A stretch of DNA of 64,000 nt from a virus, in the UHGV virus genome UHGV-0236300, one strand, 5' to 3'. Shown here one piece after another: positions 15,789-44,516 of this stretch. The notes below the pieces were generated by a model that was not told the origin of the DNA, searched no databases, and saw only the letters and a list, made by a program, of their open reading frames with translations. Positions within the stretch are counted from its first letter, which is position 1. Each line of letters opens with the position of its first letter. A program made the position numbers and the translations under genes.

Positions 15789-16034
15789 ATGAACAAAGGG
15801 TGGACATTTGTAGACGGCGTTAAAAACATGCCTCTAGGAAAGTATATTGTAGCCATGGCAGATGAGAATGGCAAGGTGGATTTCGGAGTTTGCGAGATTG
15901 TTCTTGCAGGATCTGGTGACTATGCCCACAAAACTGGGATAATTAACGGTCATTTCTACTTTGATTACAACCCTGTTGTGGCGTATATGGCTATGCCAGA
16001 GTTAGAGCTCCCAAAGGAGGGTGCAGATGTTTAA
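15789..16034 (+). CDS. hypothetical protein
   Basis: 81-aa ORF, RBS CAGGAGA. Confidence 0.5.
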   Translation: MNKGWTFVDGVKNMPLGKYIVAMADENGKVDFGVCEIVLAGSGDYAHKTGIINGHFYFDYNPVVAYMAMPELELPKEGADV

Positions 16035-16224
16035 GCTTAAATCTGCATGGAACATTGCTGTGGGTGATGAGATCCGCATCCCTGGTGGGAAGACCGTTAT
16101 GAAGATATCTCGTATTGAATACGAAGGCGACCGTGTATTCCACATCTTTGCAGAAGATGGTCGGGAAATTTATGTACAAGCGGGCTCTCACATCTATATC
16201 CGTAAGAAAGGGGATGACAAATGA
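16027..16224 (+). CDS. hypothetical protein
   Basis: ATG 16027 after AAGGAGGG. Confidence 0.45.
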   Translation: MFKLKSAWNIAVGDEIRIPGGKTVMKISRIEYEGDRVFHIFAEDGREIYVQAGSHIYIRKKGDDK

Positions 16225-16550
16225 CAGAGATCATTATTTCAACTGCAGGGTATGTATTCCTGACAATCATTGCTCTGACCATTTTGGTGGCGGTATATGG
16301 ATTTGTTATTCTACCTATTCTTGAGACAATTAGTTTGTGTCGGTGTTGGAGAAAGGCTTACGGTCCACAGCCGTGGAGGGACTGGCCCCACCTGGTTCGC
16401 ATAGCGTTCTCTTATGCTTATGATCACGCCAGCAGTGCATGCATAACCGGGTATCACGCTCACAATTGGAACTGGGAGGGGTTGGGTAGATGGAATGTTA
16501 TAAAGACCATACCTCTACGTATGCACAAGCCTAAAAACAAAGACAGTTGA
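16221..16550 (+). CDS. hypothetical membrane protein
   Basis: ATGA-coupled; N-terminal hydrophobic helix YVFLTIIALTILVAVYGFVILPIL. Confidence 0.5.
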   Translation: MTEIIISTAGYVFLTIIALTILVAVYGFVILPILETISLCRCWRKAYGPQPWRDWPHLVRIAFSYAYDHASSACITGYHAHNWNWEGLGRWNVIKTIPLRMHKPKNKDS

Positions 16551-16599
16551 TACTTGAAAATCCCTGGCACATCAAGTATAAGGAGGATTTCTAAAATGG

Positions 16600-17050
16600 A
16601 CTTCCTCCTTTTGATATTTTACCTGGCCGGATATTTTAAAATTCTTAGAAAATCAGAAAATGGATCGAAAACTAAAATGGATTTTTCAAGACAGGCGCGA
16701 TAAGATGTGCTGCTCATTCTATCGTTCGCACCGTACTTTAAGTTACTATTCCAGATTTTCCGCACATACTCTCACCCTTCTACCAGAACTTTCCCAGCTT
16801 ACCTTTGACCCTTTATAACAATAAACCCATTATTCTCAGTAGGTTTTGATACATCTCTCTCAGTACTCGATCTGTTTTTCGTTTCAAAGATTGAATTTTC
16901 TGAAAATTTTTCTCGATAAATTTCTTAGTACTCGATCTGTTTTTCGTTTTCTGAATCAGATTTTCTGGAAATCGTTCCGGAGCTCGACCTGAAATTTTTG
17001 GGGACGAAATCGATTTTTCGTTTTCGGAAATGGATTTTTAAAATTTGTAT
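16600..17050. repeat. AT-rich non-coding region with short direct repeats
   Basis: AGTACTCGATCTGTTTTTCGTTT at 16861 and 16929; AAAATGGAT repeats near 16650; TTTTTCGTTTTC motifs. Confidence 0.5.
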
Positions 17051-17157
17051 ATGGAAATACTTAAGGAGGTATTATTTTATATAGAATTGTCACGGTAGGT
17101 AATTAGCATGCTAACTAAATTTATGAAATGCGAAAAGTTCTCATTTAGAATTTTGAA

Positions 17158-17350
17158 TGATAATCATTCTCGTTTGCAGAATAACGGGCACCCCCGGTGA
17201 TTGTCTCCCGGCCCCTGTTGCCCCGGCTTGTTATTATAGTATCACACAGGACAAAGAAAGCAAGGATTTTTTGCATAAATTTTTAAATGATAATGATAAC
17301 CGTTCTCATTTTATGCAGCGCCCATCCCCGGTGGTTGTCTCCCCCGTCAC
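17158..17350. repeat. duplicated ~65-nt element (two diverged copies)
   Basis: Both copies contain AATGATAAT...TTCTC...GCAG...CCCCGGTG.TTGTCTCCC; downstream CCTGGCGGGGCC repeats at 17389 and 17449. Confidence 0.5.
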
Positions 17351-17773
17351 CGGTGCCTGCCGTCCTTTCGATAGGTATATTGTGCCACCTGGCGGGGCCG
17401 CTGTCAACACTTTTCAAAAAAATTCTAACCTGATGCGCTAACCGTTGCAACCTGGCGGGGCCAGCCTGGCAGGGCTATGCTATAGGGTAGGCAACAACTG
17501 AAGAGGAGGTACAAAAATAAAAGGTAATATGATCCCTGGAAATGTAGCGATTAATGACGCTGAGGCTATCGCCCTGGTTGAAAAGGCTATGGCGGGAGCG
17601 TTGGAACATAAAGAAGAGTACGAAAAAATGATGGTTAACCTGGCAGGGGCGGCGGCTGGAGAATTCTGCCCAAAAAATAATTCTAACTAATGGTTGACAG
17701 CTCGGATAGTTCTGTTATTCTTATCCTCGCAAGGTGAACAACACCACACTAATTAACAGAGAGGATAAAAATC

Positions 17774-17971
17774 ATGAACGCCTACGGAATTAAAGTACGT
17801 CGCAACACTCGCCAGGCCGTCACCGATCAAATGATTTGCCAGGTGGACGTAACCATCAACAACGGGCAAGGCCTTTATAAATTCCGTCGCGGTCAGAGCT
17901 ACACCCGGCAACAGCTTAATCGTTGCGCCCTGACAAAAGGCCAGATCAACCACTGGTTTAATAAAAAATAA
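17774..17971 (+). CDS. hypothetical early protein
   Basis: 65-aa ORF, RBS GAGAGGA. Confidence 0.5.
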   Translation: MNAYGIKVRRNTRQAVTDQMICQVDVTINNGQGLYKFRRGQSYTRQQLNRCALTKGQINHWFNKK

Positions 17972-17974
17972 GTA

Positions 17975-18003
17975 TTGACATACAGTCTGACACCAAATAC
18001 ACT
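17975..18003 (+). promoter_or_regulatory. sigma70-like promoter
   Basis: TTGACA, 17-nt spacer, TACACT. Confidence 0.5.
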
Positions 18004-18035
18004 AAAAGCACAAAAGACACTAAGAGGATAAAATC

Positions 18036-18434
18036 ATGAAAACCACTACCTTTAATTTTGATAATGCGGACTTTTCTTTTTCTGATGTCAAGAACTGCCG
18101 CCGTGATCGTGGATTTTACAAGGCCTATAATCTGGTGGGCCTGGACGATGACAATAATTTGCACGAAGTAGCTGAGATCCGGTATTATGCCGCCGCCAGC
18201 GGGAACACTCAATACTGCGTTTTTTGGATTCACGACAACAAGAACAATAAGTACGGTTATACTGGCGGGAAGGCGAGCGGTCACGGTTACGATAAAGCTA
18301 ATGCAGCACTTGAGAGCGCATTAAATGCTATGGGGATCACTGCCAACGGCTGGATCTATGAAGAAGAGTTTTTGTCGGCACTTGCTAACCACCTGGGCTA
18401 TAAAAAGCACATTGTAACATGCGCCCACGAATAA
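18036..18434 (+). CDS. hypothetical early protein
   Basis: 132-aa ORF, RBS TAAGAGGA. Confidence 0.55.
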   Translation: MKTTTFNFDNADFSFSDVKNCRRDRGFYKAYNLVGLDDDNNLHEVAEIRYYAAASGNTQYCVFWIHDNKNNKYGYTGGKASGHGYDKANAALESALNAMGITANGWIYEEEFLSALANHLGYKKHIVTCAHE

Positions 18435-18921: not shown

Positions 18922-18924
18922 GTT

Positions 18925-18970
18925 TATTTTTAGATGGCCTTGACTCCAGGGCCATCAATAAAGTAAACTA
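18925..18970. repeat. conserved stem-loop element, copy 1 (possible terminator or RNA processing site)
   Basis: TTTATTTTTAGATGGCCTTGACTCCAGGGCCATCAATAAAGTAAACT, stem GATGGCC/GGCCATC; identical copy at 19544-19589. Confidence 0.5.
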
Positions 18971-19001
18971 GTCTCAACTAAGCGAAAAAGGGGGCTTTAA
19001 G

Positions 19002-19121
19002 ATGAGCACTACACGCCAATACACAAAGGTAACTATTATCGTTTGCGTTGTCGGTTACATCCTGGCGCAAATGTTAATGAGTAGCGCCAACAGTTTTGCA
19101 AAATTTTTCTTAAATTTTTAA
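19002..19121 (+). CDS. small hydrophobic peptide (39 aa)
   Basis: RBS AAAAGGGGG; MSTTRQYTKVTIIVCVVGYILAQMLMSS... predicted transmembrane. Confidence 0.35.
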   Translation: MSTTRQYTKVTIIVCVVGYILAQMLMSSANSFAKFFLNF

Positions 19122-19122
19122 T

Positions 19123-19176
19123 TGACAAGCTAACCCAAATCAGTATACTTAAGCACGTAAACGGGAAAACTTCCCA
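19123..19176 (+). promoter_or_regulatory. sigma70-like promoter plus conserved 5'UTR element
   Basis: TTGACA ... TATACT, then CACGTAAACGGGAAAACTTCCC (identical 22-mer also at 21013-21034). Confidence 0.5.
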
Positions 19177-19200
19177 GAACACACAAAAGGAGAAAACACC

Positions 19201-22652: not shown

Positions 22653-23263
22653 TGTCTGCTCTTCTCCTACCATAAACGGCCCTACCTGGCAAGTGGAATA
22701 ATTGACTAGCCATCAATCCCACATACTGTACAAATATACATGGAAAATAACTATTGCATAATCTTTCATTGTGTGGTAGCAGGGCCATTTTTACCCGTTT
22801 TCTCTCCCAAAAGTGCACGTAATGCCGCTATTGCACAAATTTTAACCTGATGCACATCTCCAATATCTTGTCAACAACTAAAAATCTTTATAAGTCATAC
22901 ACTTACACAGCATCGAAAGCGTGTTCTACGCGAAAAATCGAGTATAACTATAGCCGCCAGATCTCAGAATTCACGTACGCACGCCATTCTATAGTCTGCA
23001 AAGTATTTATTCCAACCACAGAATAACGGAATAGTCAATACCTGCATAAAATAATTATTCGTGTAAACTGCATAACATAAATCAGCTCAGGTGTCAACAT
23101 TTTTCGTAAACAGTTCGAAATTGTCACGATAAGTTATTATACACAGAGAAATCTTTAGTCGTCTAATGTTTACTGTACATTACTATACTGACTGGAATCA
23201 TTAGATGACTAAGAGAAAGATAAGAAATAATTAATAATGTAATTGTTTTACCTGTAACAATAA

Positions 23264-23440
23264 GGCAACTATGCAAACGAATGGCATGGCGCGACGGAGT
23301 CGCGACATAATATAAAAGCAGTAACAATCACCCCCGTGATAGTTTTTCTGCAATCTATTATTCAGATCATAGTTGCCTTGTATTTAGTTAATCATGACAT
23401 AACAAGCAAGGCAACTATAGATCTTCTAATAGTTGCCCTG
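23264..23440. repeat. CATAGTTGCC direct and inverted repeats
   Basis: Motif at 23264 (rev), 23368 (fwd), 23410 (rev), 23429 (fwd); 23368-23420 is a 13-bp-arm imperfect palindrome. Confidence 0.5.
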
Positions 23441-23529
23441 CTTTTATATTATGTCATAGATTGTTATCTTGTTAATTGTTTTCATGCAAACGAATGTCAT
23501 GGCTTATCATCTCTGTGTAAACAATTTGG

Positions 23530-23585
23530 GCGTAAACTATTCAGATGAAAACTATTCAGGCGTAAACAGTCTATGCGTAAACAGT
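23530..23585. repeat. CGTAAAC(AG) motif cluster
   Basis: GCGTAAAC at 23530, 23560, 23575; also 23897 and 23105; the same core occurs in the early 5'UTR 22-mer. Confidence 0.5.
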
Positions 23586-23610
23586 GAGATATGGAATAGT
23601 AACAGCCGTT

Positions 23611-23682
23611 ATTGTGTCATATTGTGTCATTGTGTCAAAGGTAAAAGTGTCAAAAGTGACAATTTTGTCACATTGTGTCAGA
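23611..23682. repeat. TGTGTCA / TGACA iteron-like repeats
   Basis: ATTGTGTCAT x2, TGTGTCAAA, GTGTCAAAAGTGACAA, TTGTCACATTGTGTCAGAC. Confidence 0.5.
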
Positions 23683-24204
23683 CAAGTTTTTCTCCTCTTT
23701 GTCAAGTGCCGCATGAAAAATTTACAAACTGGTATGGTAGCATTTTTGCGGCCCTGTTTACATTCAGGAATGTATGTATAATCCTTGCTGTGTGGGCGTT
23801 TAGACGTCTGGACGGTCAGAAGTCAGCAGGTCAATATCTAATCTATTGGTTGCTAACTATATCCCACACAAATAGTAAGAAATATAATTGTTATGTGCGT
23901 AAACAGTAACTCATGTTATCAATCCCTGTATGTATCGCCAGTGGTGCGCATAATGGGTATTATGTTAAATTGCCCGTAATGATAACCATTCTCACAATGA
24001 TAGGTATTCTCATTCATCCCCACAAGATAGATTGCAAATGTTGTGCCACTGTGTGAACGGCCTCACCTATTAATTTGCCTCACTGCCTCGATATTTGAGA
24101 ATTATTATAAAAAATGAGAAGTATTCCCATTCCGTCCGCCTGGCAGCACTCCTGTAGGACAAGCACAACATCGGGGTATAACTGGACCTGTTCAGATATT
24201 TCTG

Positions 24205-24345
24205 GCTGACTCTTCAGGCCTGTGTGGGAAAAGCCAACCTCTCCGGCGGCGGGGAGGGGGGTCAATTAAAAAATTTACGTGGTGTATGAAGCGCTCTTCA
24301 GGCAAGGTGTGTATTATGGGATGAAACCCTCTTCAGGTGATGATA
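24205..24345. repeat. CTCTTCAGG repeats and G-rich repeats
   Basis: CTCTTCAGG at about 24211, 24296, 24330 (and 24739); CCGGCGGGGA(G/T)GGGG at 24244 and 24388. Confidence 0.4.
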
Positions 24346-25113
24346 TTTGTGGGGGGATATTTGCTGGAAAGCCAGATATGACGGGGCTCCCGGCGGGGAT
24401 GGGGTAGTACAGACAGGGAAAATGTGGGGATGTGGTGGGAGTAAATTGATCAAGTAGGTAGGATATGGAATATGTTACAAGTATGTTAAATATAGAGGTA
24501 GGATATTTGTGAGATTTGTGTGTAAAATCAAAGACTTAGGTGGTGTTGTGGTATTTTCTATAAATAATTCAAGTTTAATAGGTGATATTTGTCTCCATCC
24601 ACTTTGTGTGGTAAACAGCTCCTAATTGAATTGGTTTACAAGTGTATATAAAGTATACAAATTAAAGATATAAGAAACCCCCCTCCCCCTTCGGCTACCA
24701 TTCACCTTTTCCTCTGACTGGTACTTAAACACTTATTCAGACTCTTCAGGTTATCACCCCTATACTATATGGCAGTGACTGGTGTCCTCCGGCCCCTCTT
24801 TCGCCACCCGTCCGCTTCGCCATGCTAATGCCATAGCCAAAGGTTCGGTTGTTCACCCTGTTCACTCAGGTGTATCTCCATACCCCTTCAAACCGAAGAG
24901 AACAGAAAACCCGAATTACTCGGTAAAAGAAAAGAGAAGAACTTAATTTTATCAAGATAGGCAAGAATGTCAAGGGATGACTGCTCACTAAACAAGCAAA
25001 CAGTCATGTGTGGTAGGTAAGTAACTGGGTTGGTAGGAAATTTAGTTGGAAGATGTTATAGGTGCCTCCAGAACCTTAGCTGGGCAGCTAAACCTGCAAA
25101 GCAGACTTGTGTG

Positions 25114-43387: not shown

Positions 43388-44476
43388 TTAAAACTCCCAA
43401 ATTTCTTCTTCAGCGTCGTTAACAGTTGTGTTGACGCGGTAGTCAGTGTTAGACATTTCCTGGTTAGCCGTCTGTTGCAGTGAAGGTTTCATCCACACCT
43501 GCATAAACGGTAGCGGGTCTTTTGTTGGCGGCACAAAGTCTTTGTCGATATTGTAGTAATCATAAATCGGTGAGCAGTTATAGTCAACCCATTCTTTAAG
43601 TAATGGTGAGTTAAGACCTATAATTGCTCTTCCTTCGCTGAAAATATAGTCACTCCAACCGTACTCCTTGATTCGCACTTCGTCAAGAATTTCTTTTAAC
43701 TCACCCTTAATCTCAAGAAAGCTTTGCTCCCATGCAGGGTCATCAAGCAGGATATCGATGATAGCAAAATCACCTTTCGAATGCAGCATTTCATCAAGCA
43801 TAATTTTTTGAACGAGTTGTGCAACTTGAACAAAAATACCTTGCTCAGCTACTGCGAACGTACATGCAAAACTTGCAATAAACTCAATACTCTCTAGAGC
43901 TAAAAGTGCAAAAAGTGCTCTAAGGATACATTTCCGTACAACATCTTCTTCAACACTGGAAGGATCCAGTCGGTATTTTGCACCAATAACCTCAAGCTCT
44001 TGCATATATTTGACAATAACTCCAGACCTGCTCAGCACGTTCTGGTTTTCCTGAATCTCTTCTATAATCTCACGAGCATTAGGAAGGCATTGTCTAACAA
44101 TCTCTGAGTAAGTTAGTGCATGAAGAACCTCAATCTCAGACTGCTTCATCAACAAGGTGAAAAGTTCACTATTGGTGATAAATGGTGAAAACAGACAAAT
44201 GATAGATCTTGCTGCAACACTGTCTGCCTCCCATTGCCACATCAGTGTCTGCACCATCACATCGTAAGTTGACTTTGAGCATGTTACGAAATCCGAAATA
44301 GACTGTGACAGATCTACTTCGTCCTCTGCCCAATCTTGTTCTTTTTGTTTTTTGTATAGTTCAAACAGCTGTGGGTACTTTTTGTTAATAGAGTCGTACA
44401 TCCCCATCTGCTGTCCTAAAAACAGTGGATAATCACCAGTTTTATGAGCAGTGTTCTCAGTATTAAATACAGCCAT
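43388..44476 (-). CDS. nrdB: ribonucleotide reductase class I beta subunit
   Basis: Ferritin-like E..H pairs (EIEVLHALTYSE, DEMLH); start at MAVFNTEN after AGAGGTAG. Confidence 0.8.
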   Translation of the reverse strand: MAVFNTENTAHKTGDYPLFLGQQMGMYDSINKKYPQLFELYKKQKEQDWAEDEVDLSQSISDFVTCSKSTYDVMVQTLMWQWEADSVAARSIICLFSPFITNSELFTLLMKQSEIEVLHALTYSEIVRQCLPNAREIIEEIQENQNVLSRSGVIVKYMQELEVIGAKYRLDPSSVEEDVVRKCILRALFALLALESIEFIASFACTFAVAEQGIFVQVAQLVQKIMLDEMLHSKGDFAIIDILLDDPAWEQSFLEIKGELKEILDEVRIKEYGWSDYIFSEGRAIIGLNSPLLKEWVDYNCSPIYDYYNIDKDFVPPTKDPLPFMQVWMKPSLQQTANQEMSNTDYRVNTTVNDAEEEIWEF

Positions 44477-44488
44477 TATTCTACCTCT

Positions 44489-44510
44489 AAAATGGGGCCG
44501 AAGCCCCTTT
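44489..44510 (-). terminator. intergenic hairpin between nrdA and nrdB (partial terminator or stability element)
   Basis: GGGGC TTCG GCCCC flanked by A-run and T-run. Confidence 0.4.
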
Positions 44511-44516
44511 TTTAAA

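Follow-up and report, generated by a model that had tools for sequence, protein, structure and literature searches.

We analysed a gene-free region of the virus genome UHGV-0236300, available as one stretch of 64,000 nucleotides (hereafter the window). The region lies at ~16704-17516 and contains an array of palindromes resembling the operators of Fur, the iron-responsive repressor of the host. This non-coding span is functional DNA, conserved and free of genes, and we propose, at a probability of roughly 45%, that it is a Fur-occupied, bidirectionally transcribed control region whose core would be an array of host Fur operators. The source phage belongs to the rV5-like coliphages (Vequintavirus): across the 1.3 kb around the region, it shares 99.8% identity with Escherichia phage B9-1 and 90-98% with more than 100 rV5/FV3-like phages. 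Genes run rightward from ~1.5 to 26 kb of the window and leftward from 26 to 62 kb, and the region sits among the small early genes of the rightward set.

Conservation was measured in an alignment of seven Vequintavirus genomes. Nucleotide diversity (pi) was 0.030-0.044 across two duplicated units (17113-17415), which were more conserved than the flanking genes (0.056-0.089), and 0.059 in a set of AT-rich repeats. In the spacer at 16704-16859 it reached 0.225, with 53% of the columns variable. The duplicated units and the AT-rich repeats are thus under selection.

An earlier reading of the DNA letters alone (the sequence-only reading) had placed a non-coding stretch of ~1 kb at 16550-17520 and regarded the open reading frame (ORF) of 94 aa across it (17157-17441) as spurious. 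The first claim holds for ~16704-17516, but the leftmost 150 nt are not clearly non-coding. The second agreed with all the evidence from codon positions, indels and annotation. Variable sites in the 94-aa ORF were distributed over the three codon positions as 8/4/10, without bias, compared with 4/5/20 in the upstream gene. A poly-A run within the ORF differs in length by +2, +5, +6 and +9 nt, and the ORFs annotated over its position differ from record to record. A protein-coding reading of this segment, minus-strand ORFs included, was ruled out on these grounds.

The duplicated units open with palindromes of Fur-operator type

The sequence-only reading had also noticed two diverged copies of a GC-rich element of ~65 nt. 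This duplication was confirmed, and its core sits in two units of ~135 nt: 17143-17175 resembles 17279-17311 (73% identity) and 17189-17209 resembles 17323-17343 (90%), at an offset of 134-136 nt. Each unit opens with a 19-bp palindrome of Fur-operator type (Table 1). Box B matches the consensus GATAATGATAATCATTATC at 15/19 positions and the Vibrio-type consensus AATGATAATAATTATCATT, which was validated by electrophoretic mobility shift assay (PMC7536154), at 16/19; its core is invariant across genera. Box C matches the E. coli consensus GATAATGATAATCATTATC at 16/19, the top score in the 64-kb window, and the Vibrio-type consensus at 15/19. The two best GATAATGATAATCATTATC matches in the window are therefore those at 17289 (16/19) and 17153 (15/19); the same scan of local shuffles gave 0.2 sites per window at 16/19 and 0.5 at 15/19. 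Read in the AATGA...TCATT register, the region holds three boxes, starting at 17127, 17156 and 17292, the third 136 bp beyond the second. Box A reached its score in the second register (AATGATAATAATTATCATT) only, and its counterpart in other genera, GAATGAGAAGCATTCTCATTT, is better conserved.

Sites matching AATGATAATAATTATCATT at 15/19 or better numbered six in the window against 0.43 expected. All six fall where there is no ORF of at least 60 aa, namely in the target region, in a cluster at 23978-24131 and in a gap at 19025. The gap site, AAAGGTAACTATTATCGTT (19025-19043, 15/19), lies in the interval 18922-19200. A weaker Fur-box-like match, TATGAGCAGTGTTCTCAGT at 44443-44461, lies in 43484-44516, which likewise lacks ORFs of at least 60 aa.

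Comparison with the host genome pointed to the same regulator. When 17145-17190 was compared by BLAST with 5,426 complete E. coli genomes, a single recurrent match was obtained: in ~3,900 genomes, 17158-17176 is identical at 19/19 positions to a site that precedes the mntH start codon by 45-63 nt. This site, shared with box B, sits just before the MntR palindrome of the mntH promoter, and mntH is repressed by Fur and MntR (PMC8970401). A 30-nt consensus of the phage boxes had as its best E. coli matches only the mntH promoter, followed by the yhhX-yhhY spacer directly upstream of ryhB, which Chen et al. place among the strongest, gel-shift-confirmed Fur sites (PMC2189734). At the level of sequence, the phage boxes are indistinguishable from genuine Fur operators. 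The motifs of ArgR, FNR, CRP, NrdR, Zur, MntR and IHF, compared by eye, did not fit in spacing or sequence.

Box arrays are kept in related phages and recur in unrelated ones

The block at 17127-17212 is the only part of the region that is 80-89% identical in Mydovirus, Seunavirus, Certrevirus and Henunavirus, the flanks having diverged; in Phapecoctavirus its identity is ~71%. In every genus, the block lies within a stretch of 0.6-1 kb without rightward genes. The homologous gap keeps arrays with a 29-bp period in Phapecoctavirus and in all the Vequintavirinae genera sampled. The boxes of these relatives form arrays of 2-4 with starts exactly 29 bp apart, and sites of at least 14/19 in the 2-3 kb loci compared are nearly confined to the box block.

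The same box was found well beyond this group. An exact match to the 17-mer GAATGATAATCATTCTC was found in 103 IMG/VR stretches, many of them unrelated to the source phage. Several of these stretches carry 3-10 boxes arrayed in intergenic DNA, and in three IMG/VR phages the array lies immediately upstream of the large terminase gene. In a reference phage collection, 1,018 records matched the box consensus, with up to 12 places per record in T5-like phages. The T5-like phage DT57C has 8 boxes or half-boxes (0-4 mismatches to a 19-mer) in the 1.9-kb untranslated part of its left terminal repeat, where they adjoin DnaA-box inverted repeats, and the lambdoid phage mEp043 carries a single box, ~150 nt short of the right end of its record. 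The occurrence of one box sequence in unrelated phages fits a host factor of conserved specificity better than lineage-specific phage proteins. Within the DT57C left terminal repeat (locus L153, 1914-2526), a series of Fur-box halves and full boxes, for example AAATGAGAATCATTYCACTTCTT, was also seen to repeat with a 23-nt period.

The palindromes might instead bind a phage-encoded protein, such as a repressor, a small terminase or a nucleoid organiser, their likeness to Fur operators being a matter of chance. Regular 29-bp arrays are typical of phage operator and packaging-site repeats, some of the arrays adjoin terminase genes, and the favoured variant, TGAGAAT-N-ATTCTCA, departs from the textbook Fur box at one symmetric position. 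Such an explanation would nevertheless need one protein common to all the phages that carry the exact 17-mer, including those without detectable DNA similarity outside the box, whereas the flanking genes examined lack a known function and are not the same from group to group. The phage consensus also retrieves genuine Fur-regulated host promoters. We consider a phage-encoded ligand improbable.

Phage DNA is already known to carry Fur boxes in front of cargo genes (sitABCD) and, in prophages, in front of nohA and nohB. The phage-borne cargo gene stx1 is also preceded by a Fur box. The sites at nohA and nohB, which are prophage homologues of the lambda small terminase gene Nu1, and the site in mEp043 resemble the present boxes in being Fur-operator-type sites on phage-derived DNA without a link to iron genes. 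Those of nohA and nohB (cryptic lambdoid prophages) and of mEp043 are single sites beside packaging genes of temperate phages, whereas the boxes described here are arrayed within the early region of a virulent myovirus, remote from the terminase. In E. coli K-12, Fur gel-shifts the nohA upstream site, and nohB is among the strongest predicted Fur sites (PMC2189734). A literature search returned no account of conserved, regularly spaced Fur-box arrays in gene-free regions of virulent phages, and one on Vequintavirinae transcriptomes and Fur boxes in T5 returned nothing relevant.

A close parallel in a virulent phage is the injection-stop region in the T5 left terminal repeat. Both regions are large, conserved, untranslated blocks with palindrome arrays and direct repeats; those of T5 were described as unexplained, in a text that does not mention Fur (10.1101/866236). 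The T5 region differs in its paired DnaA boxes, its DRD repeats and its location in a terminal repeat, none of which was seen in the source region; the 64-kb window shows no sign of a terminal repeat, and the two regions have no DNA similarity except in the boxes.

We tentatively suggest, as a possibility that falls short of probable, that several unrelated lineages of large virulent phages (rV5-like, phAPEC8-like and T5-like), with enterobacteria and related bacteria as hosts, keep consensus-quality Fur-operator arrays in large untranslated regions. Through Fur, these phages would sense the iron status of the host and thereby control non-coding transcription, replication or the entry of DNA; alternatively, they would titrate Fur and so reprogram the iron metabolism of the host. 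If true, Fur would become a candidate host factor for part of the palindromes in the T5 injection-stop region that have long lacked an explanation. Fur binding would supply a concrete and easily testable host factor for the untranslated repeat regions of several major coliphage groups, some of which are used in phage therapy. It would also tie phage development to iron availability, which is relevant in the gut and in infection, and would make the boxes usable as iron-responsive control parts in engineered phages. Even without Fur binding, the arrays mark a widespread and so far uncharacterised phage DNA signal.

Titration could by itself account for the boxes of the source phage: acting as a Fur decoy or sponge, the operators would capture Fur as phage DNA replicates and de-repress host iron uptake and RyhB, and the freed iron would serve phage enzymes such as ribonucleotide reductase. 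In agreement with this idea, the arrays have no consistent relation to promoters, their genomic contexts differ between phages, and six sites of at least 14/19 to the Vibrio-type consensus form two clusters within 7 kb of the source genome. The consensus match of the phage sites presumably lies at the high end of that of host operators. Multicopy Fur sites do titrate Fur, and the Fur titration assay (cited in PMC2189734) is built on this effect. With 3-6 good sites per genome, however, the effect would hinge on a high copy number of phage DNA, and the T5 sites lie on DNA that is single-copy when first injected. A decoy would also face the thousands of Fur molecules present in a cell, and it would leave the conserved promoter geometry unexplained. 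We judge a decoy role to be quite unlikely.

Promoters around the boxes and the proposed control by Fur

Box B lies over a weak rightward promoter-like site (8/12), while the well-conserved promoters are leftward and have the boxes at +50 to +100. The rightward site was found in 8 of the 11 loci compared. Its -11 A is lost in Mydovirus (CTGAAT) and in CB7 (CGGAAT), TTGAAT is absent from Phapecoctavirus, and its function is doubtful, as judged from these sequences. Of the leftward promoters (Table 1), Pm1 has boxes B and A ~+50 to +100 downstream and Pm2 has box C ~+60 to +80 downstream. The Pm2 spacer is the CCTGGCGGGGCC repeat at 17388-17399, so that CCTGGCGGGGCC repeats serve as promoter spacer and flank. 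Six representatives of other genera have two leftward sigma-70 promoters, with -35 elements at +111 to +114 and +266 to +279 from the main box; their hexamers are conserved and their GC-rich spacers (16-18 nt) are variable. The nearer of the two corresponds to Pm1 and matches at 9-10/12, with variable spacers. Only the second is present in Phapecoctavirus.

Just upstream of the second leftward promoter, Seunavirus and Mydovirus carry a small conserved leftward gene (DUF7170, phrog_4653), located on the minus strand at L002 1817-2008, L003 1794-1976 and L149 1519-1704. A different leftward gene occupies this position in Phapecoctavirus and CB7 (phrog_19316 / phrog_33408). No counterpart of these leftward genes was seen beside the region in the source window.

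We hypothesize that, in an iron-replete host, all three boxes would be filled by Fe2+-Fur dimers, A and B with their starts 29 bp apart. Once bound, Fur would occlude the weak rightward promoter under box B, an arrangement found in the mntH promoter, and would also block leftward transcripts that begin at Pm1 and Pm2, at a distance of 50-100 bp. Under iron scarcity, the boxes would be vacated and non-coding transcription would pass through the region both ways: leftward transcripts would enter the AT-rich repeats and the end of the upstream operon, and rightward ones would head for the next early genes. Fur binding, transcription of the region and its gating by Fur, and a consequence for the phage are all inferred from sequence features.

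Several observations weigh against this proposal. The rightward promoter is weak (8/12) and its -10 element is not kept in all genera, so that the classic geometry of a Fur box over a promoter is a candidate arrangement here. Repression by Fur from +50 to +100 would be unusual, and box A is degenerate in the source phage (14/19). The 19-21-bp palindrome is the same as in the Fur boxes of E. coli mntH and ryhB, and box B covers -35/spacer-like sequence as in mntH. In contrast to these host operators, the phage boxes are carried by a virulent phage in a gene-free region, the main promoters face them from 50-100 bp, and no metal-related gene lies downstream; the downstream genes include no iron-related gene. 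The boxes also form 29-bp arrays and not the clusters overlapping by 3 or 6 bp that are found in the host, and a regular 29-bp spacing is atypical (PMC2189734). Finally, Fur leaves the AT-rich repeats and the conserved core GAAT-N3-RGGCA-N5-GGTG-NTTGTCTC unexplained.

The GC-rich core and small RNAs

The conserved core is located between box and promoter. Each unit has one copy of its sequence GGAGACAAnCACC, and the window has no others; the core of unit 1 was also found in a 347-kb contig (L008) and a 121-kb contig (L047). In several lineages, the N5 block of unit 1 switches between CC and GG without a compensating change. The GC-rich short repeats pointed out by the sequence-only reading were found as well, CCTGGCGGGG at 17388 and 17451 and CCTGGCAGGG at 17465 and 17639.

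One proposal for the duplicated element had been a pair of small structured RNAs. Each unit would then encode a short regulatory RNA transcribed leftward (or rightward), which might act as an iron-responsive RyhB analogue. The arrangement of the units is compatible with this: each has its own leftward promoter, from which short leftward transcripts are possible, and its own copy of the core. All pairs of a candidate 8-bp outer helix can form in Vequintavirus and in Certrevirus, which differ from each other by an A-U to G-C exchange, and a neighbouring block in other genera forms a plus-strand hairpin with G-U pairs and compensatory changes.

The searches for structured RNAs did not bear the proposal out. 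A covariance-model scan with Rfam gave no hit at the gathering threshold in the window or in eight related loci, and relaxing E up to 10 gave chance hits only. No intrinsic terminator was detected in 17100-17520; the single terminator-like site in 16000-18200 lies on the plus strand at 16994-17031 and is a weak, AT-rich stem. The RNAalifold consensus was empty on both strands across genera, and folding z-scores were unremarkable (-0.7 for the plus strand, -1.6 for the minus strand). The outer helix averaged 6.9 of 8 pairs against 5.7-5.9 in shuffles, but the favoured strand varied by genus; hand-anchored tests of this helix and of a 4-bp stem gave a weak signal and an ambiguous strand. The uncompensated CC to GG switches in the N5 block also argue against a conserved fold. 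Compared with RyhB, a Fur-repressed, Hfq-dependent small RNA, the units are alike in having a Fur box near a short GC-rich non-coding unit. They differ in lacking a terminator hairpin with a U-tract and a consistent conserved fold, and the likeness to ryhB ends at the Fur box. We give little credence to small RNA genes at this position.

Descent from the host ryhB gene was rejected, since local alignment compared with shuffles gave nothing beyond the Fur box. Phage PVP-SE1 (L003 ~1549-1560) and the -10-to-+1 segment of ryhB (L155 1493-1504, reverse strand) share the 12-mer TTGTCTCGCGAT, after which both continue with GCGA-loop-UCGC; this is probably a chance likeness.

The structured block of the genera other than Vequintavirus, ACCGGCGATCCACCTTCC...GGTAYGTTAGCCCCGCCTTTTCGCCGTGGGGTGGCG, is conserved at ~+190 to +290 from the main box (L001-L003, L146-L152). 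Its plus-strand hairpin, CCCCGC/GUGGGG, contains G-U pairs and compensatory changes (CCAG/UUGG, CCAU/AUGG), and it matched no Rfam family. The block (ACCGGCGATCCACC...GTTAGCCCCGCC...GTGGGGTGGCG) is absent from the source window. A tRNA or pseudo-tRNA was likewise rejected: ARAGORN found none in the window or in L001-L003, and Rfam none at E up to 5 in L001 1350-2350. The tRNA-Met, tRNA-Ile and tRNA-Lys annotated in Klebsiella phage K45PH128C2 (OY978796) at L001 1504-1657 and 2124-2199, which cover the box block and neighbouring non-coding DNA, look spurious.

AT-rich repeats and a possible replication origin

The AT-rich direct repeats described by the sequence-only reading are present as three copies of 47 nt with 72-74% mutual identity and spacings of 65 and 74 nt, each containing TTTTTCGTTT. 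GC content across 16800-17199 is 0.33. Homologous repeats were seen in all the genera compared; those of PVP-SE1, in the equivalent position, matched window positions 16903-16945 by BLAST (E = 1e-4). The sequence TCGATAAATT occurs within the repeats at 16912-16921 and probably corresponds to the published high-affinity nucleation motif of H-NS.

The suggestion that this region is an origin of replication found no direct support. Regularly spaced repeats do lie beside AT-rich repeats with promoters directed toward them, but the boxes are not replicon-specific, and neither DnaA boxes in the region nor an initiator among the five neighbouring proteins scanned were seen. A transcription-activated origin could work as in T4 oriF/oriG or ColE1, with a G-rich leftward RNA forming an R-loop or primer that opens the AT-rich repeats, and with the boxes acting as iterons or as a Fur gate on origin firing. 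In line with this, the leftward promoters at 17407-17379 and 17450-17422 and the weak one at 17263-17233 all aim at the repeats (16853-17038), from conserved positions. The leftward transcript would be G-rich, given the negative GC skew of the plus strand at 16600-16900 and 17200-17500, although it is the coding strand that is usually G-rich. The AT-rich repeats, with their period of 65-74 nt, are conserved across genera, the box spacing is iteron-like in its regularity (two boxes 29 bp apart here, 3-4 at 29 bp in relatives), and the region is gene-free and strongly constrained.

Other findings speak against an origin at this place. The boxes match host operators and recur in unrelated phages, where they may stand beside terminase genes; in T5-like phages they are in the untranslated region of the terminal repeat, whereas the T5 origins are near the genome centre (Davison preprint 10.1101/866236). 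The region (16550-17520) lacks DnaA boxes (TTWTNCACA), of which the whole window has 6 where 8.7 would be expected. No initiator was found among the five flanking proteins scanned, all of which match only families of unknown function. Cumulative GC skew makes no local turn and tracks gene orientation. Compared with lambda ori and T4 oriF/oriG, the region has the spaced palindromic repeats by an AT-rich segment and the promoters toward it, but its repeats are not replicon-specific and no initiator gene was seen. We regard an origin here as unlikely. The non-coding DNA at 22.8-25.1 kb is far richer in iteron-like repeats and is a better origin candidate than the target region.

That second segment (22820-25110, ~2.3 kb) has few convincing genes and dense short direct repeats: GCGTAAAC four times (23529-23577), TGTGTCA five times with near-copies (23613-23680) and CTCTTCAGG five times (24211, 24295, 24330, 24742 and 25404). 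It holds three Fur-like boxes, at 23978, 23996 and 24113, and may equal the grey 'non-coding' box of the rV5 genome map (PMC3606486).

Boundaries and minor features of the region

Table 1. Features of the region in window coordinates, from left to right.
Feature	Position	Strand	Details
Small ORF, 35 aa	16597..16703	+	Left edge of region; strong Shine-Dalgarno AAGGAGG at 16580-16586
Spacer, fast-evolving	16704..16852		Plus strand C-rich, GC skew -0.25 to -0.39
Three AT-rich 47-nt direct repeats	16853-16899, 16918-16964, 16992-17038		Core CTCGATCTGTTTTTCGTTT
Box A, degenerate Fur-operator-like palindrome	17127..17145		AATGCGAAAAGTTCTCATT; 14/19 to AATGATAATAATTATCATT
Box B, main Fur-operator-like palindrome	17153..17176		TTGAATGATAATCATTCTCGTTTG; starts 29 bp past box A
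Promoter-like site, weak, overlapped by box B	17153..17182	+	TTGAAT, 18-nt spacer, CAGAAT (8/12); predicted start ~A17190
GC-rich core, unit 1	17179..17207		GAAT-N3-GGGCA-N5-GGTG-ATTGTCTC; sequence conserved
Putative leftward promoter Pm1, weak here	17233..17263	-	-10 TATAAT (17238-17233), -35 TTGCTT (17263-17258), 19-nt spacer; read from sequence
Box C, Fur-operator-like palindrome of unit 2	17289..17310		GATAATGATAACCGTTCTCATT
GC-rich core, unit 2	17323..17343		CATCCCCGGTGGTTGTCTCCC; 90% identity to 17189-17209
Leftward sigma-70 promoter Pm2	17379..17407	-	TTGACA, 17-nt spacer, CACAAT, upstream TG (10/12); conserved in relatives
Third leftward promoter-like site	17422..17450	-	TTGCAA, 17-nt spacer, TAGAAT (9/12)
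CCTGGCGGGGCC + CCTGGCAGGG repeats	17451..17474		48-nt insertion/deletion site among relatives

At the left edge, a 1-nt deletion in a T-run (near 16682) shortens the 35-aa ORF; relatives keep an open frame of 84-100 aa at this position, for which FV3 and HMD-6 have an annotation. This FV3-type ORF matched nothing in PHROG or Pfam. The 35-aa ORF is probably a pseudogene or no gene, and its longer counterpart may not be a real gene anywhere.

The right boundary is at 17516, the next gene starting at 17517 (ATG in relatives, ATA here) or at 17529. In relatives, the ATG of this downstream gene (phrog_21957) follows 6 nt past GAGGAGGT. The source phage has ATA at 17517 plus a 3-nt deletion a few codons on, so the start is either the ATG at 17529, with a poor ribosome-binding site, or a non-canonical ATA.

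Between the AT-rich repeats and the boxes lies an orphan but perfect Shine-Dalgarno sequence, TAAGGAGGT (17062-17070); no start codon that it could serve follows, and relatives carry mutations in it. Immediately left of box A is a perfect 12-bp palindrome, TTAGCATGCTAA (17103-17114). Among the records matching the region, sixteen (MG0656xx) are labelled 'Campylobacter phage', with Campylobacter jejuni as host for 15; the eight of these matches listed are ~90% identical to the rV5-like region, and the host assignment looks doubtful.

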